Positions 8,124 through 42,286 of a DNA stretch of 64,000 nucleotides are shown in pieces. Origin of the DNA: Candidatus Latescibacterota bacterium (lineage in GTDB: Bacteria > Latescibacterota > UBA2968 > UBA8231). How positions within the stretch are numbered: the first letter of the stretch is position 1; each line of letters begins with the position of its first letter. The DNA lies in contig OZ244561.1 in NCBI GenBank assembly GCA_965217585.1, forward strand, positions 2,336,001-2,400,000. The letters are read 5' to 3'. Both the position numbers and the translations under genes were made by a program. The notes beneath the pieces are model-generated. The model did no database searches and was not told where the DNA came from. It worked only from the letters and a program-made list of their open reading frames with translations.

Positions 8124-8212
8124 GGTTTTTCAGACAGCTTCTAAGTGTTGTTCAAGTGAATTTCACCAGCAGTATCCATGCAATCCACATGCCCAAGTAA
8201 AGGAAAGGAATT

Positions 8213-25614: not shown

Positions 25615-26463
25615 ATGGATTCGACCTGCCTGCAACACACCTTGACCGAGGAGGAGCGCCGCCAATTTGCGGAGGACGGCTTCTTCATCGTCCGCGATGT
25701 GCTACCTCTGGATTTGGTAGCACAGCTCATCCCCATCGTCGATCGACTCGCTGCCGAGTACCGGCCGAAAAAGGGGCTGGAAAAGCACCAGATGCACAAC
25801 TTGTTCGACTTTATCGGCAAAGACGAACTCTTTCTGGAGTTGCTCGACTGGCCAAAGACGTTCGCCAAGGTCTTTGGGATTTTGGGCTGGCATATTCAGC
25901 TCTACCACTCGCACTTGATCGTTACTCCGCCTTTAGACGGCGTCACACCCAAACGCAAGCGGCTAGGCTGGCATCAAGACAGCGGACGGCTCAACCTCGA
26001 CCTGGAGACTCATCCCCGACCGAGGGTCTCGCTTAAGGTGGCGTATTTTCTCACGGACTGCACCGAGACCAATCGCGGCAACTTCCACGCCGTGCCCGGC
26101 TCGCACCTGAAAAACAAGCTGGAAATGCCAACGGACGAAGACTTAAACCCAGCGGGCGCGGTGCCGATTCAAGTGGCGGCGGGTGACGCGGTCTTTTTCG
26201 ACCGGCGGATTTGGCATGCGGCCGGCCACAACTTCTCGCCCGACGCGCGCAGGGCGCTGTTTTACGGCTATAGCTACCGTTGGTTGCGGCCACGCGACGA
26301 CATGACGGTAGAGCACCTGATGGACCGCTGCGATCCGATCCGGCAGCAACTACTCGGTGCCGGCCCGAGCGGCGGGCACGGCTACACTTCGCCGAAAGAA
26401 GAAGACGTGCCGCTGAGAGAGTGGATTCGCGAGCATCTGGGTGACGAAGCGGTGGTGCAGTAA
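25615..26463 (+). CDS. PhyH family Fe/2OG dioxygenase
   Basis: WHQDS, VPGSH, GDAVFFDRRIWHA; ATG after GGAGG. Confidence 0.9.
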   Translation: MDSTCLQHTLTEEERRQFAEDGFFIVRDVLPLDLVAQLIPIVDRLAAEYRPKKGLEKHQMHNLFDFIGKDELFLELLDWPKTFAKVFGILGWHIQLYHSHLIVTPPLDGVTPKRKRLGWHQDSGRLNLDLETHPRPRVSLKVAYFLTDCTETNRGNFHAVPGSHLKNKLEMPTDEDLNPAGAVPIQVAAGDAVFFDRRIWHAAGHNFSPDARRALFYGYSYRWLRPRDDMTVEHLMDRCDPIRQQLLGAGPSGGHGYTSPKEEDVPLREWIREHLGDEAVVQ

Positions 26464-26546
26464 ATCCAAAGACTAATATGTCTGACCTAGCTGATCGGGG
26501 TACTGCTCTTGTTCTGATTGCTTGAATATCCAATAAGCCATCACAT

Positions 26547-27482
26547 CTAGTATTCTCTGTTTACAACCCAGTCTATTCTCGGCTCTAGCCAGTTAATCAA
26601 GTCATGGCGAAGGGTATCCGGCACCCATTTACTCTCAGATACGTCATGTGCAAGTAGTCTGTACCGATCAAGGAGTAGACCGCCGGCCCGGTTGCTCTGC
26701 CGACGCATCTCTCTATCATCAAGGGAAAAAGGAAGCGAGAATGCCTTGCTGGGAACTGCCGCGAAATCGATGATTTTTGTCCACTCGTTTATGTTGGGCT
26801 TGCCAACTTTGTCGACCCAGTTCTTTCCACTGGCGCACTGGGCAAGGTACACCGGAGCACCACCTCGACTATCGGCAAAAGGCAGATGCCATACTAGATC
26901 GACTCCAGCTTCATTCGCTTGGTCGGAGGCATAGTCATCGACATATCCTATCGGCTCGTTGATGTGCGACGTGATCTTACGTACGACATCCGGCAGCTTC
27001 GAAGTCTCGTCTTTCCTCCAACCCGTATGGAGAAATTGCCACCCACTAAACCGCACTTCCATCGCAGTCTTTGTGACAAGCTCAAACAACTCGCCTTGCT
27101 CTGTGTAGTCTGGCCCAAAATAGTCCTCCCAGCCGTCGTACCGCGGTCCAAAGGACACAACCAGGCAAAAACTATGGGCTGGGACTTCTTTCCAGTCCGA
27201 GCACCTCATCATCCACCTGTCATCGAAGCTAATGGGGGAGTGACAACCAAGCCATGATAAGCGGCCTTTAAGGTCAGCCCATCTAGACGAGACATATGCT
27301 GACGCGAAATCTTGGTCGTCGTATAGCTGTTCTTCGATCAGGTACTCAATGATGTCTGTCGGCGAGAGTTCCTCCTCAGCGATCAACGTAGTTGCCTCCA
27401 CCCAATCAAGAAACGTCTCATCATCAATGTTATGGGCATTTACCGACCGTTGAAATCCGCGAGGAATGCTAAGCATCGTCAT
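26547..27482 (-). CDS. Putative restriction-endonuclease-fold protein
   Basis: GELFELV helix, AGVDLV...LAQCASG resembles a PD-(D/E)xK/Mrr-like core; third gene of the methyltransferase cluster; start approximate. Confidence 0.5.
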   Translation of the reverse strand: MTMLSIPRGFQRSVNAHNIDDETFLDWVEATTLIAEEELSPTDIIEYLIEEQLYDDQDFASAYVSSRWADLKGRLSWLGCHSPISFDDRWMMRCSDWKEVPAHSFCLVVSFGPRYDGWEDYFGPDYTEQGELFELVTKTAMEVRFSGWQFLHTGWRKDETSKLPDVVRKITSHINEPIGYVDDYASDQANEAGVDLVWHLPFADSRGGAPVYLAQCASGKNWVDKVGKPNINEWTKIIDFAAVPSKAFSLPFSLDDREMRRQSNRAGGLLLDRYRLLAHDVSESKWVPDTLRHDLINWLEPRIDWVVNREY

Positions 27483-28596
27483 CAGTGCCTCGTCGCATTC
27501 CGATTTTCTCTGCAATGCTAGGGAACTTCAACACAAGCTCTTTGGCATTCAGGGCTAGGCGTAGCATCGCTTTCTGAATTGACTCCGAATCAAGATGTAG
27601 ATGCACTCGACTTAGAGCGAGTTCCATTTGATTACTTGCTTCCTTGAGCTGATTTTCGATCTCCTCATCCTCTATGCCGGCTTTCTGTAAGGCCAACTCA
27701 AAGCTGGGATCAGGAACTGATCGAAGGTACTCTATGGCTTGATCGCTTGACAGAATGCGAGCAAAATTCCCAACATCTCGGGAATCTGTAAATAGGGGCT
27801 TGCTACTGTTAGATCCGAACAGCCACGCCACAAAGTCTGATAGGTTCTTCGTGTTGTCCTCAGGAACAGGTGTCTGAGCTTCTTCAGGCTCAGCCCTAAT
27901 GTCAACGCCGAGGAAACTCTGGACGCCCGCTTCTCTCAACGAGAGGAAGAGCACACTAAATCGTTTGTCAAGCCCCTCTTCAGATATGTCAATTTCAAGG
28001 TCGTCAATCTGGTGAAGGATTCGATAGGCGATGTAGTTGCGTCGTACGATGTCGGTTCGGCTTCCAATCTGCTTTCGGATGGACTCGTACGACATGTTTT
28101 TCTTATCCACCATCCGCGCGATGAACTCGGCCTTCTCGGCAGGGTCCCACTGTTTGATTCCAGTAACGTGTCTGAAGCCGATAAAGGCAGTGACTTCCTC
28201 GCGTGAGTGAGCAAGTATATAAGGCACCTTAGTAAATAGATTGTTGTCCGGCTGAACTCCTTCGGCAAGTTGTCTCCATATCCGTGGCACCGGTTCGCCA
28301 GCTACCGCCTTCTTCAGGTATTTAAGTGCTGCAATACGGCGATTGCCTTCTACTACCACTAGCGTGCTAGGTCGCCCATACAACTCCTCTGCCACAACTA
28401 TAACGGCTTCTTGCGGCCAGAACCCGTTTTCTAGGAAGGAGATTGCCAACTCATCCAGACTCCAAGTTCGCATGAGTTCCATCAGACGTTCCTGAGTCGC
28501 TGATGGCTCTGAACGGGCATCTCCTAACCTCGGATTGCGAGGATCGAGAAAGAGCTTCTCGAGTGCAACAAACTCAATCGAGTGCGATGGTGACAT
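27469..28596 (-). CDS. ParB/Sulfiredoxin N-terminal domain protein
   Basis: LFLDPRNPRL, LAISFLENGF, VVVEGNRRIAALK. Confidence 0.75.
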   Translation of the reverse strand: MSPSHSIEFVALEKLFLDPRNPRLGDARSEPSATQERLMELMRTWSLDELAISFLENGFWPQEAVIVVAEELYGRPSTLVVVEGNRRIAALKYLKKAVAGEPVPRIWRQLAEGVQPDNNLFTKVPYILAHSREEVTAFIGFRHVTGIKQWDPAEKAEFIARMVDKKNMSYESIRKQIGSRTDIVRRNYIAYRILHQIDDLEIDISEEGLDKRFSVLFLSLREAGVQSFLGVDIRAEPEEAQTPVPEDNTKNLSDFVAWLFGSNSSKPLFTDSRDVGNFARILSSDQAIEYLRSVPDPSFELALQKAGIEDEEIENQLKEASNQMELALSRVHLHLDSESIQKAMLRLALNAKELVLKFPSIAEKIGMRRGTDDDA

Positions 28597-28732
28597 AGCT
28601 CTTGCCTTTCTTCAGAAAATACATACCAAATACCGAGGCTTATAGCTCGGCCTCCTGTAAATCGCATATACGCCAACGGCCGGTCGAACGTCTATCGTTA
28701 TGTGATTGTTAGAAACAACCATATGAACACCC

Positions 28733-30100
28733 TTAGTCAATGCTGACAGTAGTTGGGTGTCTTATGCTTTCGACGTTAGTCTCTCTGGTCCGGAGAAGTC
28801 TTGTGGCAATCTCGTGAACGACATCAACATGTACCGCGTTTCCTAACGCCTTGAATGTCGAAGTCCTAGAGGCCGGAACGTGAAAGTCGTCTGGAAAGCC
28901 CTGTAAGCGCAGTCCCTCGGTCCGTGACAGGTGTCGTTGTTCTGGACCGAGGATAGGGATCTGCGTGTTAGTCATTGCGACTAGCGATGGACTGTTCGCG
29001 TATCTCTTGACGCGCAGCCCGGAAGGCCTGAACTGAAGGATATGTTTCCAGAGATCCCTCTGCTCACCCTGGCAGTTCCACTCAAGCTTGCGGAGGGAGG
29101 GCGGAAATGTGCGAAGGCCACTGATCCATTCTGATGGGAGCTCATCCCGGATCGTGGAAAGCCAAGTCCGGTTAGACTTGATGAATTTCACTTTCCACTG
29201 TGGAAATGTCTCGACCTCTGTGCGTGCGTAGCTGGGCAAAGCCTCAAAGCTCTCTTGGGCAGGAGATTTCCCGTTCCTGCTGAAGGCGGAGCCATTTGTC
29301 GCAGCAAGCACTTGAGCCCATGGAGTGATCTCTTCATAGGAGTAGGTTGCATCAATCTCGTCTCCCCATATCGGAAATGACGGTAGGGCAATCTTCTCTT
29401 CCGGTAGTGCATCTAGGAAAATGTTCCAGTGCTCTATGCAGCGACGGTGCTGGTCCACTATACGTGTCTCATTATGGTCTCTCTCTGACAACTCGTCTCT
29501 GGGCTGGACGATGTGTGCCATGGATGTTGATGCCCTTCGGTTCCTCGGAGGGAAGGTATCCGGCGGGAGGCCCTCAAGCGAAGCAACTGCGAAGAAGCGC
29601 TCTCTGTGATGTGGCCGTCCGATATGGTGTGGGGAGAGCAACCCTGCGCCACCGCTCGTTATATGTTCTGTTCCACTGACCTCATAGCGGAGACTCTCTA
29701 GGCTAGACTTGACGATATGCCATGTTCGTCCTTCGTCGTGCCGTTCAAAGTTCCCAACATTTTCCAAGATCACAAAGCTTGGCCTGTGCGTTTCCAAGAT
29801 CTCTAGTATCTCGTGAAAGAGGGTTCCAGTCGTTTGGTCGCTCAAACCGGCCTGTGCCCCTGACTTCGAGAAAGGTTGGCATGGAAATCCGGCGCACAGC
29901 AAGTCGTGTGGTGGCACATACCCCTTTGAAAGCCGGATGTCTCCATGGATCGGAGGGCCAGCAGGGAAGTTGCGGTTGTACACCTCTTGAAGTTGACTAT
30001 CTATCTCCGAAGCAAAAACACACTCATGTCCGAGTCGCTCAAGAGCAAGTCGAAAACCACCAAGGCCAGCAAACAGATCAATAAATCTCATTGCCAGCAT
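28733..30100 (-). CDS. DNA (cytosine-5)-methyltransferase
   Basis: Motifs FAGLGG, GFPCQ, ENV, RERFF, RLQGFP, GNAV; start 30100 or 30091; specificity unknown. Confidence 0.95.
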   Translation of the reverse strand: MLAMRFIDLFAGLGGFRLALERLGHECVFASEIDSQLQEVYNRNFPAGPPIHGDIRLSKGYVPPHDLLCAGFPCQPFSKSGAQAGLSDQTTGTLFHEILEILETHRPSFVILENVGNFERHDEGRTWHIVKSSLESLRYEVSGTEHITSGGAGLLSPHHIGRPHHRERFFAVASLEGLPPDTFPPRNRRASTSMAHIVQPRDELSERDHNETRIVDQHRRCIEHWNIFLDALPEEKIALPSFPIWGDEIDATYSYEEITPWAQVLAATNGSAFSRNGKSPAQESFEALPSYARTEVETFPQWKVKFIKSNRTWLSTIRDELPSEWISGLRTFPPSLRKLEWNCQGEQRDLWKHILQFRPSGLRVKRYANSPSLVAMTNTQIPILGPEQRHLSRTEGLRLQGFPDDFHVPASRTSTFKALGNAVHVDVVHEIATRLLRTRETNVESIRHPTTVSID

Positions 30101-30778
30101 CCTGATACGAGATAAAAGGATTCGAGGGCGACCAGATCATTGCGCGGTGATCACCAGACGAAACCTGGGCCTTAAGGACAATGCGCAGTCCCTGGCACTC
30201 TGAATCCGGTCCATAGGTTCGTTCGGAGGAGGGGTGAACAGGGTATCTTGTACGCCGACCTCTAACTGGCCACTTTGATGTGCGTTCACGGCAACTGTAA
30301 CCCTCAAGACGACTCTGCTTGTCGCTTATACTGGGCGATAATCTCATTGAGCTTTCTACTAATTGTCTTCCTCCAAGTGCTGCTCGGGCCTTGAGCCATC
30401 GACACAGATACCGGTCAACACGGATATTGGTTGGTCCGGCGCAGCCACGTTGAGACACCACTGAAATACCTCGTTCGCCCTTGTGCATGGAAACTCTACA
30501 GCGACGTAATAAGACACTTTGGGGACCCTCTGTCAAAGCGCTGAAAACACGTAAGGGGCAGGGCAGGTGGCGAACTTGAACTGTGGCTGAGGCGGGCCCC
30601 TCGTCGAGGTCACCATCGGCAGTCCCACTCCGAGCAGATAGCAACGAATCGAAGAAGGAATGGCTTCTAATCAACGTCGTCCTTTGGCCCCGACCGCGCG
30701 CTTGCGGTGCCTGCAAAACGCCCGATGCCAGCGAGACATCGGGCGCTTTGCAGGGGTCGAGGGCAGGGCCTATTTGAG

Positions 30779-31183
30779 TTAAAAGTCGCCGAATCTCAGC
30801 GCCGGGTTGACTGTGATCATAGCTTCCGGCAGTTGCAGCGCGGTAATCGCCGTACCAGCGGTGTACGCTTGGTCTGCGACCGCCCCGGTGAAAGCAAAGG
30901 CCATCCCGCCGTCTTCGATCCTCCTGATTGTGTACGTGGTGCCGTGCAACTTGAAGTCGTCGTCGGATAGAACATTGGAGTTGCTGCACTTTATGCTGAC
31001 GGGGTTACTGTGGGAACAACCGAATTCGTCCTGGGCGGTATTCAGGGTTTTCACGTCCAGATCGGCAGACCAGATGGTCACGTCTTGCGCGGAGGCCGGC
31101 GGCGCGATGACGAGCGAGGCCGCGAAGAGGACGCCGCAGAGGACCGCGGCGAGGGGCCGGTGGCCGGTCGATTTCAAATCCAT
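30779..31183 (-). pseudogene. Truncated secreted surface-protein remnant
   Basis: AAGGAG RBS, signal peptide ending PASAQ, then short Ig-like fragments (VADQAYTAGTAITALQLPEA) and a stop at 134 aa. Confidence 0.5.
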
Positions 31184-31284
31184 GGCAACGTCTCCTTTTC
31201 TATCATGAAGGTCGGTTGAGGACCGCCGGTGCCCGGCTCGACCCCGGTCGAGGAGGAGGCAAGCCGGCGGCCCTCGGGCCGGGT

Positions 31285-34200
31285 CTACTCGAGGTAGAGC
31301 ATGCGCCGGGTATGCACGCCGCCCGGATAGTGCAGGCGCGTGAAGTAAATCCCCGTGGCCACGCTCCGAGCCGCGGCGTCGCGGACGTCCCAGCGCACCC
31401 GGTAGGTGCCGGCCTTCTGCACCTCGTCCACGAGGGTGCGTATGCGCTGCCCGAGGATGTTGTAGATGACCAAGCGCACGGGTCCGGGCGCATCGAGTCG
31501 GTAGAGGATGACGGTGTTGCCGTTGAAGGGGTTGGGCGCGTTGGGCGCCAGGCCCGGCGGCCCGTCCGCGACCGCCGGCTTGGACGACGACTTGATTTTT
31601 TTGACCGTCAGCTCGTAGTAGCCCCACTCGAACGACTCGCCGCTCGCCGCGATGTAATAGGTGCCACCGGCATGGGCGTGAAACGTCACCCGGAACAGGT
31701 GGTGGGAGATTGATTCGTCGCGGGACCGCGTGTTGACAAGGGACTCCCCGTCCGCATCGTAGATCGCGTTGATCTGCGGGAGGCGCAGGGTGAGATCGTT
31801 GGTGGGAATCGCGCCCTTCATGTCGATCCGGTAGGTCCGGCCCTTCTTCAGCTCCACCGCGAACCAGTCGGTGTCGAACTCGTAACCATCTACGTCGTTG
31901 CCGCCTGTTCTTTCCACGAAGATCGGTTTGTAGATGGTGCTCCTGGCCCCGTCCCCGCCCACCTCAACCATGCTGGTGGTGGTCGTGTTGGCGGGCAGGT
32001 CCTCCACGTCCACCACGACGAAGATGTAGCCACGGTGGTCGTGGTCCCCTAACGGCCCGGCCAGAGACGGCTGGGTGGAGATCTCCCCGGTCACCGGCTC
32101 GGTCGATATCCCGGTGACGGTGACCACCGTGCCCTCGACCTTGCCGGCCTCCACCGTGAACACCCTCTCGCCGCCAGCGATCGTCACCGGGATAGCGACC
32201 TTGAGCGGCGCCCCCGCCAGCACCTTCGCCAGCACCTGATTGGGCCCCACATGCTCCAGGGTCACGGAAAGCGGCAGCAGATCGTCGGGGTCGGGGTTGT
32301 GGCGCAGGTCGAGAAGGAGCAGCTCCTCCAGGCCGGAGAACACGCCGTCGGGAAGCGACGTCAGATCGTTGTTGTGCAGATCGAGCAGCCCCAGCTCCTC
32401 CAGGCCGGAGAACACGCCGGCGGGAAGCGACGTCAGAGCGTTGTCTCTCAGCAAGAGGTTCTTCAGCTTCGTCAGGCCGGAGAACACGCCGGCGGGAAGC
32501 GACGTCAGAGCGTTGTCGTGCAGCCAGAGCGTCTTCAGCTTCGTCAGGCCGGAGAACACGCCGGCGGGAAGCGACGTCAGAGCGTTCTCTCTCAGCAAGA
32601 GCTCCTCCAGCTTCGTCAGGCCGGAGAACACGCCAGCGGGAAGCGACGTCAGACCGTTGTTGTACAGACGGAGCAGCTTCAGCGCCTCCAGGTCGGAGAA
32701 CACATCGGCAGGAAGCGACGTCAGAGCGTTGTTGTGCAGCCAGAGCTCCTCCAGCTCCGTCAGGCCGGAGAACACGCCGGCGGGAAGAAGCGACGTCAGA
32801 GCGTTGTTCAGCCTGAGCTTCTCTAGCGCCGTCAGGTCGGAGAACACGCCGGCGGGAAGCGACGTCAGAGCGTTGTCGTACAGCCAGAGCAGCTTCAGCT
32901 TCGTCAGGCCGGAGAACACGCCGGCGGGAAGCGACGTCAGAGCGTTGTCGTACAGATAGAGGCTCTCTAGCGCCGTCAGGTCGGAGAACACGTCAGCGGG
33001 AAGCGCGCTGAGCGTGTTGCGGCTCAGACTGAGGAACGTCAGCGCCGTCAGGCCGGAGAACACGCCGGCGGGAAGCGCGCTGAGCGTGTTGCCGCTCAGA
33101 TTGAGGCTCTCTAGCGCCGTCAGGTCGGAGAACACGTCGGCGTCAGGAAGCGTGCTGAGCGCGTTGCCGCTCAGACTGAGGTACGTCAGCGCCGTCAGGC
33201 CGGAGAACACGTCAGCGCGAAGCGACGTCAGATCGTTGTCGTGCAGATCGAGGCTCTTCAGCGCGTCCAGGTCGGAGAACACGCCGGCGGGAAGCGACGT
33301 CAGATCGTTGTCGTTCAGCCAGAGCTTATCTAGCGCCGTCAGGCCGGAGAAATCACCCGGCTTCAAGGACTGGATGTTATCATCCTCGAGATTGAAAGTA
33401 CCCGTCACGCTGGCCAGTTGCGTTGTCGTCACCTCGGCGCAGTCCGACACGCCGACGATTGCAGCCATGATCGCGTCCCGCACCTGAGCGGTGCGATCGC
33501 AGATGCTGGACAGCTGCCGCGTTCCACCGCCGGGCGCGCCGACGGGATCGTCCTCCCCGTCCGGGTCGGCCGGGTCGTCGGCTTCGACGAAAGTCGACTG
33601 CGGCGCGGCCGGCGTGGCGACGTGGAACCAGCGGGAGCGTTCGCTCACCCCGTGCGCGTTGATCGCCTTGATCCGGTAGGTATACGTCGTGCTTGCAGCC
33701 ACCGTGTCGTCGGTGTACGTCGTCGCCGCCGTGCCCGTATCCGGCACCAGTTCACTGAACTCGCCCCCTTGATCGTTCACGCGCACGCGCCGCAAGATCA
33801 CGTAGCCGGTGATGCTGGCGTCGCCAGGGTCGGCCCAGGTGAGCACCACCTGGCCGAGCGTCGCCGTGGCGGACAGCCCCGTGGGCTGGGCGGGTACGGG
33901 CGCCGCCGGCGTGTCGACGTGGAACCAGAGGGAGCGCTCGCTCACCCCGTACGCGTTGATCGCCTTGATCCGGTAGGTATACGTCGTGCTTGCAGCCACC
34001 GTGTCGTCGGTGTAGGTCGTCGCCGCCGAACCCGTGTCCGCTACCAGCTCATCGAAGTGGCCCTTCTCGTCGGTATCCCGGTTGCGCCGCAAGATCACGT
34101 AGCCGGTGATGCTGTCGTCGTCAGGATCATCCCAAGTCAGGGTTATGGCATCGTGGGACGCCGTGGCGGACAGCCCCGTGGGCTGGGCGGGTGCGGAGTC

Positions 34201-34290
34201 CTCCTGCGCCTGCACTGGTGAGCAGAGCAGGGCCAGCGCCGCGATGGCGGCGAACAGAACGGGGAATCGTCGTCTATCGGTGCGAGTCAT
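31285..34290 (-). CDS. Secreted eukaryote-like protein: 2x FN3, about 15 LRR, PPC-like domain, FlgD/T9SS-type C-terminal domain
   Basis: AGGAGG before ATG 34290; signal peptide; FN3 (LTWDDP..ITGY..YRIKA); 24-aa LRRs; NPFN...IYNILGQ...WD...GIYF. Confidence 0.9.
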   Translation of the reverse strand: MTRTDRRRFPVLFAAIAALALLCSPVQAQEDSAPAQPTGLSATASHDAITLTWDDPDDDSITGYVILRRNRDTDEKGHFDELVADTGSAATTYTDDTVAASTTYTYRIKAINAYGVSERSLWFHVDTPAAPVPAQPTGLSATATLGQVVLTWADPGDASITGYVILRRVRVNDQGGEFSELVPDTGTAATTYTDDTVAASTTYTYRIKAINAHGVSERSRWFHVATPAAPQSTFVEADDPADPDGEDDPVGAPGGGTRQLSSICDRTAQVRDAIMAAIVGVSDCAEVTTTQLASVTGTFNLEDDNIQSLKPGDFSGLTALDKLWLNDNDLTSLPAGVFSDLDALKSLDLHDNDLTSLRADVFSGLTALTYLSLSGNALSTLPDADVFSDLTALESLNLSGNTLSALPAGVFSGLTALTFLSLSRNTLSALPADVFSDLTALESLYLYDNALTSLPAGVFSGLTKLKLLWLYDNALTSLPAGVFSDLTALEKLRLNNALTSLLPAGVFSGLTELEELWLHNNALTSLPADVFSDLEALKLLRLYNNGLTSLPAGVFSGLTKLEELLLRENALTSLPAGVFSGLTKLKTLWLHDNALTSLPAGVFSGLTKLKNLLLRDNALTSLPAGVFSGLEELGLLDLHNNDLTSLPDGVFSGLEELLLLDLRHNPDPDDLLPLSVTLEHVGPNQVLAKVLAGAPLKVAIPVTIAGGERVFTVEAGKVEGTVVTVTGISTEPVTGEISTQPSLAGPLGDHDHRGYIFVVVDVEDLPANTTTTSMVEVGGDGARSTIYKPIFVERTGGNDVDGYEFDTDWFAVELKKGRTYRIDMKGAIPTNDLTLRLPQINAIYDADGESLVNTRSRDESISHHLFRVTFHAHAGGTYYIAASGESFEWGYYELTVKKIKSSSKPAVADGPPGLAPNAPNPFNGNTVILYRLDAPGPVRLVIYNILGQRIRTLVDEVQKAGTYRVRWDVRDAAARSVATGIYFTRLHYPGGVHTRRMLYLE
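32296..33400 (-). repeat. Tandem coding repeats of about 72 bp (LRR units)
   Basis: Recurring cggagaacacgccggcgggaagcgacgtcagagcgtt, about 15 units. Confidence 0.95.
33600..34195 (-). repeat. 297-bp tandem duplication (two FN3 domains)
   Basis: gccgtggcggacagccccgtgggctgggcgggt at 33863 and 34160; long identical stretches. Confidence 0.9.
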
Positions 34291-34603
34291 GGTCGTTCCT
34301 CCTTGTGCTTGTGGGGGGGTATGGGACGCCGGAGCGATAGCGAGAAACCGAGTGCTCAGCCGCTGAGGCCGGCGCAGACTCCGGTGCGTGGATAGCGGTC
34401 TCATGATTCTCCTCCGTTTGGATAGTGAACGTGTTCGGGCAGGCGCAAAAAGAAAGGGCGAACGTCTGTAAATAAGGAACAAACGTTCATATCAGGTCGC
34501 ACAACCAAGGCGACCTCCAGCCCATCGGACCTCGACCAAGAACCGAGCAGGCGCGGCCAAACAGACGTTGGCCGCAGTATGGAAAGAGTGGGTCTTAGAG
34601 AAT

Positions 34604-34619
34604 GGGGGGGGGGGGGGGG
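34604..34619. repeat. G16 homopolymer
   Basis: 16 consecutive G, about 310 bp upstream of the LRR gene start. Confidence 0.9.
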
Positions 34620-34827
34620 TAAACTACTGTTTTTGAACGACTTATGAAATTATATCTGTCGTCCAAAGCTCGGGGCCGGACGCTACATAGGGCCACAGCA
34701 CCAAGCGCTGTCCTATCAGATGACGGGGTATGTACCATTATTTTCGGCCAATATGAATATGCAAATGTCTGCGGTCACTAAAATGCAAACGATTAGGGGG
34801 AAGTCAAGCACGCAGCACAATTTCAGA

Positions 34828-37194
34828 TCAGTAAACTACTGAGACCAACTCGGCAGCCAGCTCGGTGCTCCCATCCCCTTTGACCTTCAACCGCGCTATA
34901 TAATTGCCCGGCGGCACTTGCCCTCCCGTCCCGGTGCGCCCGTCCCACGCCAACCGCAGCGGTCCGGCCATGCCCATCGACTCTACCCCGGCCACGCGCC
35001 GTCCCGCCAAATCGAAAATCTCCAGCTGCACGGGCCGCGCTGTCAAAACATCGACCAGATCCAGTGCGACGACCAACTCGTCGTTGACCCCGTCGCCGTT
35101 GGGCGTCAACACGCTGGGGGCAATGGACATATTGGCCCACAAGGATCGACCCAGCGGCAAGCGCACCACATTGGTGCTGCTTTCCACCAACTCCGCAGCA
35201 TCCCCTGGTTCGACCCGCTGGCGCACGGGCTCGGCCAGACGACTGTCCTCCAGGAACAGCTCAAAGCGAGTGGCGTCGAGGAATATGGCCGCGGCAAAAT
35301 CCACTTCCACCAACTGCCCCGAGCGCACTGGCTGCGGCAATTGCACGGCAAAACCATCCTCCACCGCGGCCACTGCCGCTTCCCGCACCACCCCATCCAC
35401 CCGCACCTGGTCGAACTGCAAATCCGTCGAGGCCTGCACCAATAGTCGGTCAAAGCCGTTGCGCGTGCGCACGGGCCGCACATAGTAGGTGAAAATCTCC
35501 TGCCGGCCCGGTTGCACCAGCACGGGTGCCAGTTCCGCGGCCACCTGCTGGGCCAGGGGCTCGGAAAAATTCAGCACCACCCAATCCAGCAGCGCCCCCA
35601 CCGCCGGATCGCCGGATACCAGCCGCCCTTCCAGCTGCACATAGCGCCGCATGGAGGGCGACTGGAAGGGCTGGTCCGGCTCCAAGTACACCGGACTCCA
35701 CGGACTCCAATCCGCCCCTGGCACAAAGACCGTGTCAATGGGCCCGCGAAAAGAGGGGATGCGCCGCTCCCACTGCCGCTGAGTGATTTCCTTGCCCTCT
35801 GGATTGCGGTATATCACCTCGGTGTCGAGCGTATTGCCCGAGCGGCTGCGCAGCTCCAGATGCGTGCCCCCCGGGGCCTGACCGCCCCAGCGCAAGGCAT
35901 TGATATTCTTCTGTCCCTGTAAATCCAAAATGGGCGAGCGCAGATCTACCTGGACCGGCACGCCGCGGCCAAAGACCTGGAGTTCGGAGATAGTACCAGA
36001 AGCTCCGCAGCCGCGCGCAGCCGCGCCGCCGAACTCGTCGCCGCAGTTGGCGTCCCACGTCTTCCATCTGATGCGCACAAAGCGGACCGGTAGACTGGTA
36101 AAACGGTGATCGGCCAAGCCCTGTACCCGGTTGAGCTGGCCGCCCCAACCGGAGAAGTGCTTGGTCCAGAGCAGCGAGCCGTCCGGGGCCCGCGAACCGT
36201 CCGAGGTCAATACCTCGTAGAAATTGAACGAGAATCCGCGGTACTGGCGGGAAAAGGTGATCAGCCGCACCTGGTCGACCCAGTAAACAGCCCCCAGATC
36301 CAGGGTGATCTGGGCAATCACATCGGCATCGGCCCGGGTCGCCCGGATATTAGACCAGACTGTGCTGATGCGGCCGTCCATCAACTGCAGGGCATTGGCC
36401 AGATTCGGGGTATCGGGCTTCTTGGTATCGACCCCCACGACAATGTCCACGCTGCCGCCTCGCTTGATGGCCCCTTGTACCAGATTGTCGCCAAAGGCCT
36501 CCACCTCGATCTCGACCAGTCGCGCCTCGGGTGCCGCTTTCAGGACCTCTACCCGCACGAAGTGCACTGGGAAGGGCTCGTCCGGGTTCAATTCATAGGT
36601 GATCCGGCGGCGGCGGTCCTCGGTAAAGCGCTCTTTAATCCGGTACGCCAGGGTGCCTTCTATCTGCGTGCGGGTCTCGTCGCGGAACTGTTCGCCGGTG
36701 GACAGCAGCAGATCGAAAATCTCAAAGGGAGGCCCTCGCGCGGAAAAAACCAGATGCACCCGGTGGGCCGAAACCACCCGGCCCAGATCCACTTCGACAA
36801 ACCAGTCCTCGACCCTCTCGTCCAAATCCGGACCCCAGCCTGTGTCCCCGTCCCCGTCCAGCACCCCCGGTGCCTCTAGGGCATTGGAACCCACCCGGCT
36901 GATCCCCCCGCCAAAGGCCACCGCGTCCAGGGCCGCATTGTTGTTCTGGCGCACCGCCACCGGCCGAATGATCCCCTCTCGCGTCAGCTCCACCGCCCCC
37001 AGGGGCAACTCCCACTGGCGCCACTGGGCCGCTGTTGCAAAGCGCAACTCGTCGCCGGCACCCTTTTGCCAAGGGGCCAACAGAATGCCGATGGCGAGCA
37101 AAAACGCCCGGCCTGAATCCATCGCCGCACGACGGAAAATGCCCCCACTCGCCGCCGCATCCCGGCGGATTTCTACTCCCTGCTCCATCGACAC
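34828..37194 (-). CDS. Secreted protein with discoidin-like (F5/8) domains and C-terminal FlgD Ig-like domain
   Basis: VLDGDGDTGW..VEVDLG and LMDGRISTVW..ITLDLG; C-terminal TPNGDGVND..IFDLAGRRV..WDGR..VPPGNY; start uncertain. Confidence 0.72.
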   Translation of the reverse strand: MSMEQGVEIRRDAAASGGIFRRAAMDSGRAFLLAIGILLAPWQKGAGDELRFATAAQWRQWELPLGAVELTREGIIRPVAVRQNNNAALDAVAFGGGISRVGSNALEAPGVLDGDGDTGWGPDLDERVEDWFVEVDLGRVVSAHRVHLVFSARGPPFEIFDLLLSTGEQFRDETRTQIEGTLAYRIKERFTEDRRRRITYELNPDEPFPVHFVRVEVLKAAPEARLVEIEVEAFGDNLVQGAIKRGGSVDIVVGVDTKKPDTPNLANALQLMDGRISTVWSNIRATRADADVIAQITLDLGAVYWVDQVRLITFSRQYRGFSFNFYEVLTSDGSRAPDGSLLWTKHFSGWGGQLNRVQGLADHRFTSLPVRFVRIRWKTWDANCGDEFGGAAARGCGASGTISELQVFGRGVPVQVDLRSPILDLQGQKNINALRWGGQAPGGTHLELRSRSGNTLDTEVIYRNPEGKEITQRQWERRIPSFRGPIDTVFVPGADWSPWSPVYLEPDQPFQSPSMRRYVQLEGRLVSGDPAVGALLDWVVLNFSEPLAQQVAAELAPVLVQPGRQEIFTYYVRPVRTRNGFDRLLVQASTDLQFDQVRVDGVVREAAVAAVEDGFAVQLPQPVRSGQLVEVDFAAAIFLDATRFELFLEDSRLAEPVRQRVEPGDAAELVESSTNVVRLPLGRSLWANMSIAPSVLTPNGDGVNDELVVALDLVDVLTARPVQLEIFDLAGRRVAGVESMGMAGPLRLAWDGRTGTGGQVPPGNYIARLKVKGDGSTELAAELVSVVY

Positions 37195-37235
37195 CCGCTT
37201 CCCCTTTGACAGAGTTTGTGGACATTTATACTAAT

Positions 37236-37258: not shown

Positions 37259-40200
37259 CTAGGCCGGCAGCCCTGCAAAGAGCCGGCTGAACAGGCTGGT
37301 CAAGGGCTCGGTCTCGCCGCGCTCGGCCGCCCTAGCAAAGACTACGCCCGGCTGCGCCGCCCTAGCGGCCCGGCCCAAAATGTGGTAATCGGCCCGGCTA
37401 GGCCGCTGGGCCGCTTCCCGCGCCTCGGTCCAGCCCTGGTTGGTGGCGGCCAAACCCCATAGGGCACGCGGTGCCCGCACCTTGGCCTCCTCCACCGACA
37501 GGCCGTCGCGCCAACAACCGCGCTGAGCGAATAGACTACCATCTTCCCGATAGATCAGCCCGCCGCCCACGTATTGGATCAACTGCTGTTGGTTGCCCCG
37601 CGCCCCCGACAGCGCTAACAGGGCTAGGGGCCCCAAGTCGTTGTCGTCGAAATCGGCCTGCTGGTGGAAAGCCGCCACTAATTCGTCGCTGTACATTTGC
37701 CACTCGTCCCAATCGATCTCTGCGGGCTGCTCGGGCCACTCCTTGCCCGAACCGAGGAAGGGGTTGAAGGAGGCTCCAGACTGCTTGCAGACCTCAAAAC
37801 CGCGCCGCGTCAGTCGGTCGAGTACCTCCAGCGCTCGCTCCAAACCCTCGCGCTGCAGCACCTGGACTAGCAAGCGGTTGAGATCGCGCTTGGCGAACAG
37901 CCGGCTGCCATCCACGGCCACTCCGATCAGCCCCTCCACTTCAGCGCGACCTTCCTCCGTGCGGCACAGCCGCGCCAAACCCCATATCATGCCGTGGTAG
38001 TTGTCGGCCACGTAGCGCCATACATCCGCATCGCGCTGTATGTGTCCGGCCACCGACAGCGCGGTCTCGGCTTCGGCCTGGGCTTCCTCAGTGAGGGGCA
38101 AAAACACCTCTATCTGATCGCCATCGAAATCTAGCTCCATCAGTCGGCAAACGCGCGGATGGACGCGCACTGCGGCCCCGGCCAAACGCTGCGGACGAAA
38201 GGCCACCATCGCGGTGGGCGGCACGTGGAACACCGGGCCGTGGCCCTCGTCCACCAGCACCCGCTGGGCGCTGTATAGCAGCACCCACGAGCGTGCCATG
38301 ATCGCGTCCAGAACCTCAGCCGCTCGGGCCGAACGCCGCGCCACTTCCTCGGCGCGATCCATCTCCCGCTCTACCTGAGGCGCGAACAAAGCCCAGGCCA
38401 TTTCCTCGGGCAGGCCCACTTGGTCGAGATTCAACTCAAAACCCGAGGCAAGCGCGGCCCGGCCGCTAAACAGCGGCCTAGCCCGGAAGTGGAGGTGCTC
38501 CGGGCGCAACAACGCAGAAAAAAGATCCTCCACCCGTTGGGCCACCTGGGCCACCGCCGGTCTGACTAGGGCCTCGGGCGCTTCGCTATCGACGATGCGC
38601 TGCAAGCGCGTATTGGCTTCGACCAAATCCTCGAAGCAGCCTCGGATTGGGTCGAACTCGGTCCCCACTGGCAAAGCAACGGGGGATCCCACCGTCCCCA
38701 CTTGGCGTCCTGGGGCCCACGGATGTGGCACTGGGCGGGCCAAGGTCAGCCCCTCGGACTCGGCGAAGGAAAAGCGCAACTCCGCGCTCGCCAACTCGGC
38801 CCGTATCCCGGCCATACCCAGTAGCTGCTGCAACAAGGCAAAGCGCGGGGACGGGGGCGGGGACGGGGATACCGGACCGGTGGCCAAGCACTGGCCCAGC
38901 GCATTGGCGTCGGGCCGCTCGGCCGCGGCCGTGTTGAACAAAGCGTGGATATTGGCTACGGCCCCGGCCTCGCGCAAAGCACCGTAGGCCATCATGTCGA
39001 TTTCCGGTCCGCCGGCTCCTGCCACCGCGGTTTCCAAGCGCTCGGCCGCGGTGTGGGTCAGGCGGCCCCAGTACACCCAACCCACAGTACTGCGATAAGG
39101 CAGCTCCTCGCCTTTGAGGGTCAGTTGCTCCATGCCGTCTTCGGGCAGTCCCGCCTCGACTAGACGCGCTTTCAACATCTCTTCACTGGGTGCCTGAAAA
39201 GGTGGCACCACCGCCGGGTGCCCGGCGGCCTGGGCGAGGCGACCCATGACCGCCTCGCGCTGCTGGCCGAAATTGAGCCGCGAGACCATACTGGTGGGAC
39301 TGAAGATGAGTTCTATCGGCGCACCATCGGGCAACTGCGGCATGTCGGCGTCGGGCAGGATGCGCGTCACCACCCCTTTGGCACCGTGGCGGTTGCTCAT
39401 GCGGTCGCCCACCCCCACTGCGGCGGGAAAATCCATCCGCGCCGCGGCCGACTCGCTAATGACTAAGCCATCCTCAAACGTGTCCCCATCCCACATGATG
39501 AAGGCGGTCAACAGATTGTAGCCACCCCAAAAGTCGACGGCCCCAGGCTCGTATCCCGTCTGCACTAGGGCCGGCTCGGGTTTGTGGCCCTTGGAGGCCA
39601 AGCGTTGGTCGTACTGCTGGCGGAACCAACCCGTGGAGTGGATCGGTGCCGCTGTATCGGCTGCGCTCGTCCACTGGCGCATCATATTGATGCCCATCAG
39701 GGCGCGATTGGTATCGTCGTGTTCGAGAAAGGGCACCATGGAGGCCGAAAAACCCAAGATGCTGTCGGGCGCTTTGTCGATTCGTTCGAGCTTGCCGTCG
39801 CGGATGCGGGCACCGCGGGCCACTTCCAGCACTCGGCCGATATTGGGCCCTTCGGGGGTGCAGTAGGGGCACACTAGGCCGTATTGGCTGTAGGAGAAAA
39901 CGTCTTGGTCGTCAAAAGGCTCGACGACGACGGGGATCAAAGTCAGCCGCCGCAGATGGGTATAGCGGTCCAGCCAGTTGGTCGCCTGTAGATACTGCGA
40001 AGTTTCCTCCAAGTGGAAGTCGCGCAGCCAGGCGTCCAGCGGCAGCCAGTTGCGCACCAAGTCGCCATCCCAAGCCAACTGCTCGGGGGCCGCCTCCAAC
40101 CTTTGGTCAATAAAGTCGTAGAGCTGCTCGCCCACGCACAGAATCCGCGCTTGGTCGAGTTCGCGCCGGTCGGGATAGGGGACCACGACCCGGTAGTTGC

Positions 40201-40432
40201 CTTCAATGTGGAAAAGGCCATCGCGGTCGGGCCGAGGCAAATCCCGGTACTCAACCTCGACCGAGGCATCGCCGAGTCCCAAGCTCAGTTTAATGGAAAA
40301 AGTATAAGAGTCCTGTTGTTCGACTTGATAGTCGGCCAGCGGCAAGCGCTCGCCCAAAAGCCGGGGCAGTCGCTGGTGGACGAAAAGGTCAAAAGATTCC
40401 CTATGCCAAGGTACGTCGAGATTCAATGTCAT
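37259..40432 (-). CDS. Single-chain minimised RNA polymerase beta/beta' fusion-like protein (1057 aa)
   Basis: Collinear RpoB motifs ([45 protein letters not shown]) then RpoC motifs (FSGR..[23 protein letters not shown]); uninterrupted ORF. Confidence 0.9.
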   Translation of the reverse strand: [1057 protein letters not shown]

Positions 40433-41028
40433 TGATGTTCCTCCGGGTTATGGATAGCCTGCCAAGCCTGTGAGAGCTGGCGGCGGCCGTGGTGCAGACG
40501 CGACTTTACGGTGCCTTCGGGAATGCCCAGTCGCTCGGCGGCGTCCCGCACCTCGACTTGGGCGTCGTAGATCAGACGGAAAACCTCGCGCTTGTCCTCG
40601 GACAACTCTTGTACCTGTCGCCGCAGCCAGCGCTGCTGGTCAGCCCACTCCACTTGGGCGTCGGGGCGCTCAGACGCGGCCTCAATCATCCATTCGGGCA
40701 CTTGCTGCGTTTCCTGCTCCACGGTTTCAGACAGCATTTCCAGCCGCTGCTCCCGCCGCCGCCGCACAGTGCGCAGGTGCGTCAGGGAAAGATGAGTAGC
40801 AATGCGGAACAGCCAAGCAGCCACAGACCCTCGACCACTCCATTGGCCAGCCCGGTTCCACACCCGCAAGAAAACCTCTTGTACTACATCGTTAGCACTC
40901 GCATCGTCGCGGACGATGCAGCGCACGTGATGGTGGATCTGCTCCCGATAGCGCTCAAAGAACTGCTGGAACGCGCATGCGTCGCGTTCTTTTATTTGCG
41001 CTATAAGTTGTGGATCCGGTATCTGCAT
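40429..41028 (-). CDS. ECF sigma-70 factor
   Basis: Region 2 DVVQEVFLRVW..WLFRIA; region 4 AERLGIPEGTVKSRLHHGR; ATGA overlap with downstream gene. Confidence 0.93.
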   Translation of the reverse strand: MQIPDPQLIAQIKERDACAFQQFFERYREQIHHHVRCIVRDDASANDVVQEVFLRVWNRAGQWSGRGSVAAWLFRIATHLSLTHLRTVRRRREQRLEMLSETVEQETQQVPEWMIEAASERPDAQVEWADQQRWLRRQVQELSEDKREVFRLIYDAQVEVRDAAERLGIPEGTVKSRLHHGRRQLSQAWQAIHNPEEHQ

Positions 41029-41046: not shown

Positions 41047-41073
41047 AGACGCCGCCCGGAAAGTACAGGTTCA
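41047..41073 (-). promoter_or_regulatory. ECF-type promoter TGAACC-N16-CGTCT upstream of the sigma gene
   Basis: Minus strand reads TGAACC tgtactttccgggcgg CGTCT, ending 18 nt before the ATG; fits the AAC/CGT ECF pattern. Confidence 0.6.
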
Positions 41074-41329: not shown

Positions 41330-42286
41330 ATGAGCCTAACGCCAGCCCAACTCGACCAATTCCACCGCGACGGCTATATCATCGTTCCCGACCTATTCAC
41401 GGCTGACGAGATGGACGCTGCCCGAGCGGCGATGGAACAGACTTTCTACGGCCAATCCTTCCAGCAATGGCTGGCCGATTGCGACCGCGGTGAAGCGGCC
41501 GGGGTCTCGGACGGCTTCACCACTACGCACGACCACTCCGAGGGACGCTCGCAATTTCCCGTGGGCGCACCGGCCTTGGATCGGCTGATAGAAAACGAGA
41601 CGTATCTCGACATTTTTGAGCAATGCCTAGGCGCAAAAGCCAGCTACTGCAACGCCCACCTTTTTATGCGCTCGGGGCCTACTGACAAGCGCCATCCCGA
41701 CAATCCCTGGGAGGGGTACCACATTGACCACTACACCAATTGCCTGCTGCCGCCCCACGACCAGACAGGCCGTTTTGACTACGTCAATTCGGGGGTGTAT
41801 CTGCACGATGTCGAAGACGACGGTGCCCCCATGCTGCTCATCCCCGGCTCGCACAAAGTAGCTGGCCCCGCTTTTGTGCGGGCACTTGCCCAAGGCAACG
41901 CCGCAGGTGGGTCCTTCAAAGACCTTCGCCAAGCCACCGAACTGGCTGCCCCGGTTCCCGCCACTGGCCGACGGGGGACGGCTGCGTTCTACTCGTCGTA
42001 CCTAGTCCACGCAGCGCAACCCTTTGCCAATAAGCGCACGCAGCGCGCCTTTTGGACCTTGTCCATGTGCCGCTGCGACAACGATCGCTGGACCCGATTC
42101 GCCAATCCCTTCATCTACGGCGAACGCGAGCACATGCTGCCCTTTTTCACGGCCACCACGCCCCGAGTGCGCGGCCTGTTCGGCTGGCCCGAACCCGGAC
42201 ACCCGTACTTCACCAGCCAAACCTTGGACCTCTTGGAACATACCCTACCCGGTATTGATACAGGCCCCTATCGCGATGACAGTTGA
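41330..42286 (+). CDS. PhyH family Fe/2OG dioxygenase
   Basis: LTPAQLDQFHRDGY, YHIDH, IPGSH, YLVHAA. Confidence 0.85.
   Translation: MSLTPAQLDQFHRDGYIIVPDLFTADEMDAARAAMEQTFYGQSFQQWLADCDRGEAAGVSDGFTTTHDHSEGRSQFPVGAPALDRLIENETYLDIFEQCLGAKASYCNAHLFMRSGPTDKRHPDNPWEGYHIDHYTNCLLPPHDQTGRFDYVNSGVYLHDVEDDGAPMLLIPGSHKVAGPAFVRALAQGNAAGGSFKDLRQATELAAPVPATGRRGTAAFYSSYLVHAAQPFANKRTQRAFWTLSMCRCDNDRWTRFANPFIYGEREHMLPFFTATTPRVRGLFGWPEPGHPYFTSQTLDLLEHTLPGIDTGPYRDDS

Follow-up and report, generated by a model that had tools for sequence, protein, structure and literature searches.

A conserved two-gene locus pairs an ECF sigma factor with a cut-down, single-chain homologue of the RNA polymerase beta and beta' subunits

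We analysed a 64,000-nt stretch of contig OZ244561.1 from Candidatus Latescibacterota bacterium (the window, whose numbering is used throughout), in which the gene for a sigma factor of the extracytoplasmic function (ECF) type is followed on the minus strand by a gene for a 1057-aa protein related to both catalytic subunits of RNA polymerase. The large protein joins a reduced beta to a reduced beta' in one chain, keeps the catalytic residues of both and lacks most of the peripheral elements of the cellular enzyme. Relatives occur under seven phylum labels, nearly always with an orthologue of the same sigma factor just upstream and an ECF-type promoter motif before it. We tentatively read the pair as a compact polymerase that uses the adjacent sigma factor. 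The locus comprises the following features:

37259 to 40432, minus strand: fused, cut-down beta::beta' gene (1057 aa; Pfam Rpb2_3, Rpb2_6 and Rpb1_2)
40429 to 41028, minus strand: ECF sigma gene (199 aa; Pfam Sigma70_r2 and Sigma70_r4_2; TIGR02937 at 101.8 bits)
41048 to 41073, minus strand: ECF-type promoter-like motif TGAACC-N15-GGCGTC (equivalent to TGAAC-N16-GCGTC), whose end lies some 20 nt ahead of the start codon of sigma

The large protein keeps the catalytic centre of both subunits

Pfam domains follow one another in the large protein in the order Rpb2_3, Rpb2_6 (E 3.7e-32) and Rpb1_2 (E 8.9e-13), and its first half matches solved beta chains while its second half matches beta' chains. 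Both catalytic barrels are kept, with their FED, GDR..NRHG.KG and DFDGD motifs. The chain also retains the clamp helices together with switch 2 and the dock, and the F-loop together with the bridge helix. A remnant of the beta N-terminus, the fork, the beta C-terminus fused to the clamp-core strands of beta' and the last clamp segment are also present. The regions are distributed along the gene as follows:

39584 to 40432, minus strand: residues 1-283, beta N-terminus remnant, fork (Rpb2 domain 3) and PFLEHDD..NRALMG region, without beta lobes (family profile)
39008 to 39583, minus strand: residues 284-475, double-psi barrel of the beta type, in which FED occupies 319-321 and GDRMSNRHGAKG 342-353 (alignments, Rpb2_6)
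39410 to 39469, minus strand: residues 322-341, a 20-residue stretch at the flap insertion site of ordinary beta (alignments)
38663 to 39007, minus strand: residues 476-590, beta C-terminal region fused to the N-terminal clamp-core strands of beta' (PVPHPW) and lacking a zinc ribbon, from the profile match of 303-521 to 929-1161 of the solved beta chain 8i23_C
38510 to 38662, minus strand: residues 591-641, clamp helices, a coiled coil (AlphaFold2 hairpin, profile match to beta')
38288 to 38509, minus strand: residues 642-715, shortened switch 2 and dock region (25-column gap against beta' in the profile alignment)
38033 to 38287, minus strand: residues 716-800, beta'-type double-psi barrel with DFDGD (residues 768-772) at 38117-38131 (profile, Rpb1_2)
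37262 to 37612, minus strand: residues 941-1057, F-loop (SGARG), bridge helix and C-terminal clamp segment of beta' (profile)

Several of these parts were placed with profiles of the family. In the N-terminal part, 105-205 of the profile aligns with 449-560 of 8i23_C and 206-266 with 628-688. At the junction, LA.PVPHPW gives a weak match to the beta' motif around residue 110-131, which stands in the expected order. The F-loop and bridge helix are matched over 350-442 of the profile (beta' 697-797, E 1.4e-10), the latter appearing as a long helix at 980-1008 in the structural model, and the C-terminal clamp segment (469-492, beta' 1143-1166) falls below threshold but in order.

The clamp helices are the element on which sigma region 2 docks in ordinary RNA polymerase. 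The corresponding interval, 38510-38662 on the minus strand, encodes TEFDPIRGCFEDLVEANTRLQRIVDSEAPEALVRPAVAQVAQRVEDLFSAL, which AlphaFold2 models as a helical hairpin (591-615 and 620-641) and in which N607, P619 and L622 are invariant in 18 sequences. The single sequence matches beta' here with 2.9 bits only (independent E 370), in the correct order. A profile made from the beta' half of 33 sequences, however, yields one domain of 134 bits (independent E 5.6e-38) against residues 267-515 of E. coli beta', an unbroken alignment that covers the clamp helices, switch 2, the dock and DFDGD. Because the clamp-helix match lies inside this one domain, we take it to be above chance.

The predicted structure agrees with this layout. 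AlphaFold2, supplied with an 81-sequence alignment, returned a compact model with a predicted local distance difference test score (pLDDT) of 93.7 and a predicted template-modelling (TM) score of 0.92. Its sole disordered stretch, and the sole segment with pLDDT below 50, is residues 726-736, an insert within the beta' barrel that is specific to the clade of the window protein. All 50 matches listed by Foldseek against the PDB are RNA polymerase entries, nearly all of them chains C/D or I/J from bacteria or plastids. Among those listed 8ras_C ranks first (E 8.7e-23); as any one target spans a single half of the protein, TM-scores stay at 0.3-0.4. Matches in a viral structure library were weaker than the bacterial ones (best E 3.4e-17), and those with names were mostly giant-virus subunits.

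The flap and other peripheral elements are missing

In the beta barrel, the interval 39401-39478 on the minus strand encodes FEDGLVISESAAARMDFPAAVGVGDR, where FED (39470-39478) and GDR (residues 342-344, 39401-39409) are separated by 20 residues. About 250 aa occupy the corresponding flap interval in E. coli beta, and it is the tip of this flap that holds sigma region 4 in an ordinary holoenzyme. Aligned with the Clostridium thermocellum beta chain 8i23_C, residues 299-330 of the single sequence correspond to 765-796 and residues 338-470 to 932-1066; the family profile pairs 261-295 with 759-793 and 303-521 with 929-1161. From the two flanking blocks it follows that approximately 135 flap residues are replaced by approximately 7, and that this holds family-wide.

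Other elements are absent too. The family profile has no counterpart of 8i23_C 137-448, which corresponds to the beta lobes. The cysteines of the beta' part (599, 762, 823, 882 and 973, within residues 546-1057) are isolated and nowhere form a group of four, and only C762 is conserved (63 of 81 sequences); both zinc sites are therefore absent. About 25 residues of the rudder are missing from the profile alignment to beta'. Between the bridge helix and the C-terminal clamp segment, where ordinary beta' has its trigger loop and jaw, about 345 residues lack a counterpart and some 25 profile positions take their place. The full domain set of housekeeping RpoB and RpoC (lobes, flap, zinc-binding domain, rudder, jaw) is not found in the large protein, and NCBIfam models for the complete subunits score far under their cut-offs (rpoB, 167.3 against 801 bits; rpoC, 92.8 against 963.5 bits).

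An earlier note on this DNA had described much of this anatomy. Its 20-aa spacing between FED and GDR is reproduced by the translation, its deleted flap by both the 8i23_C alignment and the family profile, and the beta' zinc-binding region that it could not recognise is indeed without cysteine cluster. Its identification of the coiled coil with the RpoC clamp helices is borne out by the 134-bit domain and the modelled hairpin, so that the main docking element for sigma region 2 is, by profile alignment to beta', retained. The losses of the beta lobes, rudder, trigger loop and jaw go beyond what it listed.

The catalytic residues are conserved

We counted residues at the metal- and substrate-binding positions in the 81 aligned sequences. 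The three aspartates of DFDGD are present in 77 (D768), 79 (D770) and 78 (D772) of them, and on the beta side D321 is found in 76, D343 and R348 in all 81, and K352 in 74. These barrel residues are conserved although the proteins are only about 35-50% identical. In the wider set, 102 of 112 full-length proteins, and 67 of 71 loci, have DFDGD exactly. The window gene is under purifying selection: against 18 close relatives, its ratio of non-synonymous to synonymous substitution rates (dN/dS) is 0.17 over pooled pairs, which are not independent of one another; the lowest value in this comparison, again from non-independent pairs, is 0.11 for the beta' barrel segment. Conservation of the catalytic residues favours an active enzyme, as judged from sequence.

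An ECF sigma gene accompanies the large gene

The upstream gene product is a standard two-domain (group 4) ECF sigma factor. Its TIGR02937 score of 101.8 bits (cut-off 42.9) goes with a protein of about 200 aa that has regions 2 and 4 only, and in full-length alignment its nearest solved relatives are the ECF sigma factors 8z6g_B and 6in7_B, followed by SigW and sigma-E. The linker between regions 2 and 4, which is generally poorly conserved in ECF sigma factors, is here kept across phyla (RRRREQPLE ... PxWMID), with W113 invariant in 37 sequences. A CARF label given by PADLOC to the sigma helix-turn-helix is a weak match and was set aside.

To follow the pair in other genomes, we used contigs from one genome per species, of which 173 stretches encode a relative of the large protein, and kept 79 loci for analysis. 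Of the 79, 74 have a sigma orthologue (42-97% identity) upstream of the large gene on its own strand, under all seven phylum labels, a tie to the adjacent sigma factor far stronger than the earlier note could have known. The two genes are at most 30 nt apart in 34 loci, 31-300 nt in 31 and 1.3-2.1 kb in nine, most of the last having an ABC-transporter-type open reading frame (ORF) in the gap. In the window the sigma stop codon and the start of the large gene share 4 nt, and this overlap, together with the same-strand order in 74 of 79 loci, suggests co-transcription. Five loci show no sigma gene: two have no upstream DNA (L035, L079), one has lost sigma together with the first 93 codons of the large gene (L023, possibly through sequencing errors), and in L011 and L063 the large gene stands alone.

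The sigma tree and the tree of the large protein have correlated path distances (r = 0.94, 66 loci), as long co-inheritance is expected to produce. Across lineages, the 79 loci contain no conserved neighbour other than sigma, and neither the Pfam scan nor the neighbour survey found a recognisable anti-sigma gene at the locus.

A conserved promoter motif precedes the sigma gene

The promoter-like motif occurs once in the window, with 0.23 matches expected. The 250 nt upstream of the sigma start contain the end of a GAAC-N16-GNGTC match in 72 of 74 loci (background 0.004 per 250 nt), and in 67 loci it ends 19-27 nt before the start codon. The usual form is TGAAC-N16-GGTGTC and the family consensus TGAAC-N16-G(C/T)GTC. 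The exceptions are L046, with a 15-nt spacer, and L070, where the motif lies before two transporter genes that precede sigma. In L063, which has no adjacent sigma gene, the motif stands directly before the large gene. This layout has the look of an auto-regulated ECF operon, and we regard the motif as a putative promoter.

The earlier note had inferred from the missing flap that the protein could bind its sigma factor but not position -35 recognition normally, and had offered either a decoy or anti-sigma role or an unusual way of initiating. Its anatomical half holds; the loss of normal -35 recognition finds no support as stated, the -35-like TGAAC being found with a fixed 16-nt spacer in 72 of 74 loci. 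Since both the element and its spacing are kept, reading of the -35 element by sigma region 4 at canonical geometry appears to be under selection.

Further copies of the motif within loci lie inside coding regions of close relatives and were not counted as promoters. One of these is found in a Chloroflexota clade (L064, L067, L068, L071, L072), where GAAC-N16-GGCGTC runs antisense in the large gene (around 8124-8145 of these loci, minus strand); coding constraint in closely related sequences probably accounts for its retention. Divergent from the sigma promoter, the window has a PhyH gene at 41330-42286, one of at least nine paralogues of this phytanoyl-CoA dioxygenase family in the 64 kb.

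The family is chromosomal and spread over several phyla

A word-indexed protein search gave 533 proteins at E of 0.001 or below. Inspection of the best 120 of these showed full-length relatives of about 1000-1075 aa with identity down to 43%, and each of the 120 that carries a name is called hypothetical protein. In an exhaustive search of representatives of 50%-identity clusters, the 150 best matches include approximately 100 full-length relatives (945-1101 aa, at least 455 bits). Proteins the size of complete fused subunits (1,948-2,522 aa) reach 223 bits at most among these 150, and none of the 150 has sigma fused to the large protein, the longest family member having 1101 aa.

The records of the 79 loci are titled Latescibacterota, Poribacteria, Chloroflexota, Gemmatimonadota, Planctomycetota, Hydrogenedentota and Armatimonadota, and many of the loci lie in chromosomes of 4-8 Mb. 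A quick tree of 72 sequences mostly tracks these labels, with seven label changes where the minimum is six; Poribacteria form one clade, and the window protein falls within Latescibacterota, nearest to L023 (94% identity). Among 50,697 phage records, none of the 37 that were matched covers 80% or more of the large protein, and the same is true of all 68 matched records in the plasmid collection. A phage or plasmid origin was rejected: the partial matches are ordinary rpoB and rpoC, and the neighbours are ordinary chromosomal genes. PADLOC defence-system models did not match the large protein.

No description of the family was found in full-text searches, and the terms Rpb2, RpoB, Latescibacteria and Poribacteria are absent from the main text and one supplementary file of the paper on ECF re-classification (PMC7826278). 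In the ESM Atlas, other single-protein clusters of 1.2-1.8 thousand aa also carry both Rpb2_6 and Rpb1_2, which suggests further fused, reduced polymerase-like families. Some copies in our set are damaged: L060 and L061 have the large gene as two separate ORFs, and sigma is in two pieces in L018, in each case possibly through sequencing errors.

Gene neighbourhood

Between the large gene and the oxidoreductase and methyltransferase genes that follow it in close relatives, the window has about 11 kb of extra DNA (26000-37200). It encodes a 788-aa F5/8-type-C protein and a 1065-aa protein with fn3, leucine-rich-repeat and PPC domains, both of them secreted proteins ending in type IX secretion C-terminal domains, and includes a stretch of low GC content (0.52) with a C5 cytosine DNA methylase gene (28733-30100) and ORFs without Pfam matches. 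At this site close relatives have a PhyH gene, and L005 and L012 alone share a 785-aa gene. We considered whether the two downstream secreted-protein genes belong to the module and rejected this, as they recur in only two other loci.

Two further genes lie just upstream of the sigma promoter in one Latescibacterota lineage (L037, L041, L047-L050, L052, L054-L056, L058, L066, L077) and in L022. They encode a DksA/TraR-type zinc finger protein of about 344 aa and a protein of about 315 aa without Pfam match. In the L037/L041/L047-type lineage the large gene is usually followed by genes for a BlaI-like repressor and a BlaR1-TonB_C protein, and the nine loci with sigma 1.3-2.1 kb from the large gene belong here. 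Terminator sites were no more frequent than in shuffled sequence.

Discussion

The reading that we put first, and hold tentatively, is that of a compact sigma-dependent polymerase using the adjacent sigma factor. The anatomy, the existence of a family, the sigma linkage, the promoter motif and the purifying selection are shown by the data, and from them we infer polymerase activity, sigma binding and the enzyme that uses the promoter. The large gene would encode a single-chain miniature, of about 115 kDa, of the catalytic core of bacterial RNA polymerase, with beta fused to beta', and together with the sigma gene would form a conserved self-activating module under the TGAAC-N16-G(C/T)GTC promoter. 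The active polymerase would take the adjacent ECF sigma factor as its own initiation factor, sigma region 2 docking on the retained clamp helices and sigma region 4 reading the -35 element while being held by something other than the flap tip. The conserved linker between the two sigma regions is a candidate for this holder. That the two proteins bind each other is the better assured part and is probable, because peripheral elements were shed while the clamp helices were kept, and because one sigma lineage accompanies the large gene. The full version is more doubtful than the reading just given: a two-protein cellular transcription system, in which a core of about 115 kDa and a 23-kDa ECF sigma factor would recognise TGAAC-N16-GYGTC promoters and start transcription with neither alpha nor omega and with no flap, zinc domain, rudder or trigger loop, and in which the linker or a family-specific surface would replace the flap.

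Several observations weigh against this reading. Because the flap is absent and yet the -35 element and spacer are canonical, the host core is the simplest reader of the promoter, and the large gene sits where ECF operons usually have their anti-sigma gene. The conservation of the -35 element can be reconciled in two ways, either by the host core, with its flap, acting at the promoter, so that the large protein would compete for sigma as a decoy or be simply one product of the regulon, or by a mini-core that holds sigma region 4 anew. A second group of observations concerns the active site. Each of the three aspartates is needed for catalysis in the E. coli polymerase, and one of them is substituted in 10 of 112 proteins and 4 of 71 loci. 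The motif reads YFDGD in L020 and NFDGD in a Poribacteria subclade of three species (L039, L044, L076), and DFDGN or DFAGD occurs in several proteins (the substituted proteins include P0058, P0063, P0065, P0070, P0075, P0106 and P0121). These members are otherwise full-length and have the sigma gene and the promoter motif wherever the locus is known. Since intact sigma-linked modules persist with a substituted aspartate, part of the function does not depend on canonical catalysis.

The clade of the window protein (7 of 81 sequences) departs further from the family. It has ELDFDGD where the family has NADFDGD, YSAQ for the R-A-P motif, GDR for GDK, and PRALWGL for GARxGL at the start of the bridge helix, and a 12-residue insert follows its R-A-P motif. 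Three of the seven sequences have lost one aspartate; the window protein itself has the full triad. Residues before DFDGD and in the R-A-P motif ordinarily contact the sugar of the incoming nucleotide, and the changes in this clade (E for N before DFDGD, S for R in R-A-P) could have altered substrate choice.

An alternative that we regard as unlikely is a sigma-regulated effector polymerase. Here sigma and the host core would switch the operon on, and the mini polymerase would work without sigma, making for example a specific RNA, a primer or another polynucleotide; its clamp helices would serve a NusG-like partner or the integrity of the clamp. Such an arrangement would accommodate the absent flap beside canonical promoter geometry, the conserved catalytic residues and the two loci (L011, L063) in which the large gene has no adjacent sigma gene, and the prophage polymerase YonO is reported to need no known sigma factor (PMC5467207). 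It fits poorly with the almost universal presence of one orthologous sigma gene and no other shared neighbour, and with the retention of the clamp helices while other peripheral elements were lost. A conserved linker is unexpected in a sigma factor that serves the host core only, and the maintenance of members with a substituted Asp triad also speaks against an effector enzyme.

A pseudo-core decoy is in our view about as unlikely. In this case the host core would use the sigma factor, and the co-translated mini beta::beta' would capture sigma through its clamp helices and, without a flap, form no productive holoenzyme; it would thereby act as a buffer or gate on sigma, perhaps with the active-site cleft as a sensor. 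The position of the large gene at the anti-sigma site, with its 4-nt overlap with the sigma stop codon, is as expected of such a protein, as are the lack of any other conserved neighbour or recognisable anti-sigma, the retention of the clamp helices with loss of the flap, and a -35/-10 promoter suited to the host core. The persistence of a substituted aspartate in a minority of proteins and loci, and the altered motifs next to the active site in the window clade, point the same way; because one catalytic Asp has been lost repeatedly in otherwise intact modules, a decoy still deserves consideration. Nevertheless, under seven phylum labels about 90% or more of members retain the catalytic residues of both barrels, and no segment of the window gene is more constrained than the beta' barrel. 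A complete active-site architecture of 1000 aa is hard to explain if the protein serves to present a 50-aa coiled coil, and Pfam and NCBIfam detect RNA polymerase domains only, and no anti-sigma domain, in the large protein. Finally, a decaying, functionless relic of a duplicated rpoB-rpoC region, to which the damaged copies (L060, L061, L023, L018) might point, is highly improbable given the dN/dS of 0.17, the full-length conservation over seven phylum labels with approximately 100 full-length representatives among the 150 best, and the confident, compact model.

If the large protein is active with its sigma factor, as we tentatively propose, it would be the smallest sigma-dependent RNA polymerase known, present alongside the housekeeping enzyme in Latescibacterota, Poribacteria, Chloroflexota and others. 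It would define the smallest set of components with which a sigma-dependent enzyme can recognise a promoter and initiate, reveal a way of placing sigma region 4 when no flap exists, and offer synthetic biology a compact, possibly orthogonal two-gene transcription module. Were it a decoy, it would be the first anti-sigma acting by mimicry of the polymerase core. In both cases a second, dedicated polymerase-like component is encoded in chromosomes from several little-known phyla.

Comparison with known systems

The large protein is homologous in sequence and fold to both RpoB and RpoC, with the conserved regions in the same order. The fork is shared with these subunits, and so are both double-psi barrels (ED, GDK..NRHG.KG, DFDGD), the clamp helices along with switch 2 and the dock, and the F-loop along with the bridge helix and the C-terminal clamp segment. 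It differs in size, the two ordinary subunits having about 2,500 aa in two chains and the large protein 1057 aa in one, and in setting, as its gene adjoins a sigma gene and not the ribosomal-protein/rpoBC neighbourhood.

Natural full-length RpoB-RpoC fusions of the Helicobacter/Wolinella type are complete housekeeping enzymes of about 2,800-2,900 aa. They carry beta and then beta' in one polypeptide, as the large protein does, but their model PRK09603 gives the large protein 157 bits against a cut-off of 5372. A further RpoB-RpoC fusion is described for Candidatus Adlerbacteria (PMC11515920).

In their operon layout, ECF sigma/anti-sigma pairs (RpoE-RseA, SigW-RsiW) resemble the locus through a GAAC..GTC-type promoter, a downstream partner gene and an ordinary two-domain sigma factor. 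Here, however, the partner is a homologue of the polymerase core and not a protein with an anti-sigma domain, and the conservation of the sigma linker is unusual.

Among published systems, YonO and the Rpb2::Rpb1 fusion of a yeast killer plasmid come closest; neither is chromosomal in bacteria, close in sequence to beta and beta' or paired with a sigma factor. The latter, Orf6 of pGKL2, is a fusion of 982 aa with about half of the coding sequence deleted, reported as biochemically uncharacterised at the time (PMC2919709). Like the large protein, Orf6 joins the second-largest subunit to the largest, the same design having arisen independently; it differs in its eukaryotic descent, its cytoplasmic linear plasmid and the lack of a sigma factor. 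YonO, from the SPbeta prophage of Bacillus subtilis, is a single-chain enzyme that synthesizes RNA efficiently with no detectable trigger-loop homology; only a few of its catalytic residues are reported to align with cellular enzymes, and no promoter factor is known for it (PMC5467207). That description sets it apart from the large protein: YonO is prophage-encoded, and the large protein is chromosomal, strongly similar to beta and beta', and paired with a sigma factor. The two agree in being single chains, YonO of about 100 kDa, that have both barrels and lack most regulatory domains, and YonO is nonetheless active. Its activity without a recognisable trigger loop is a precedent for an active single-chain large protein.

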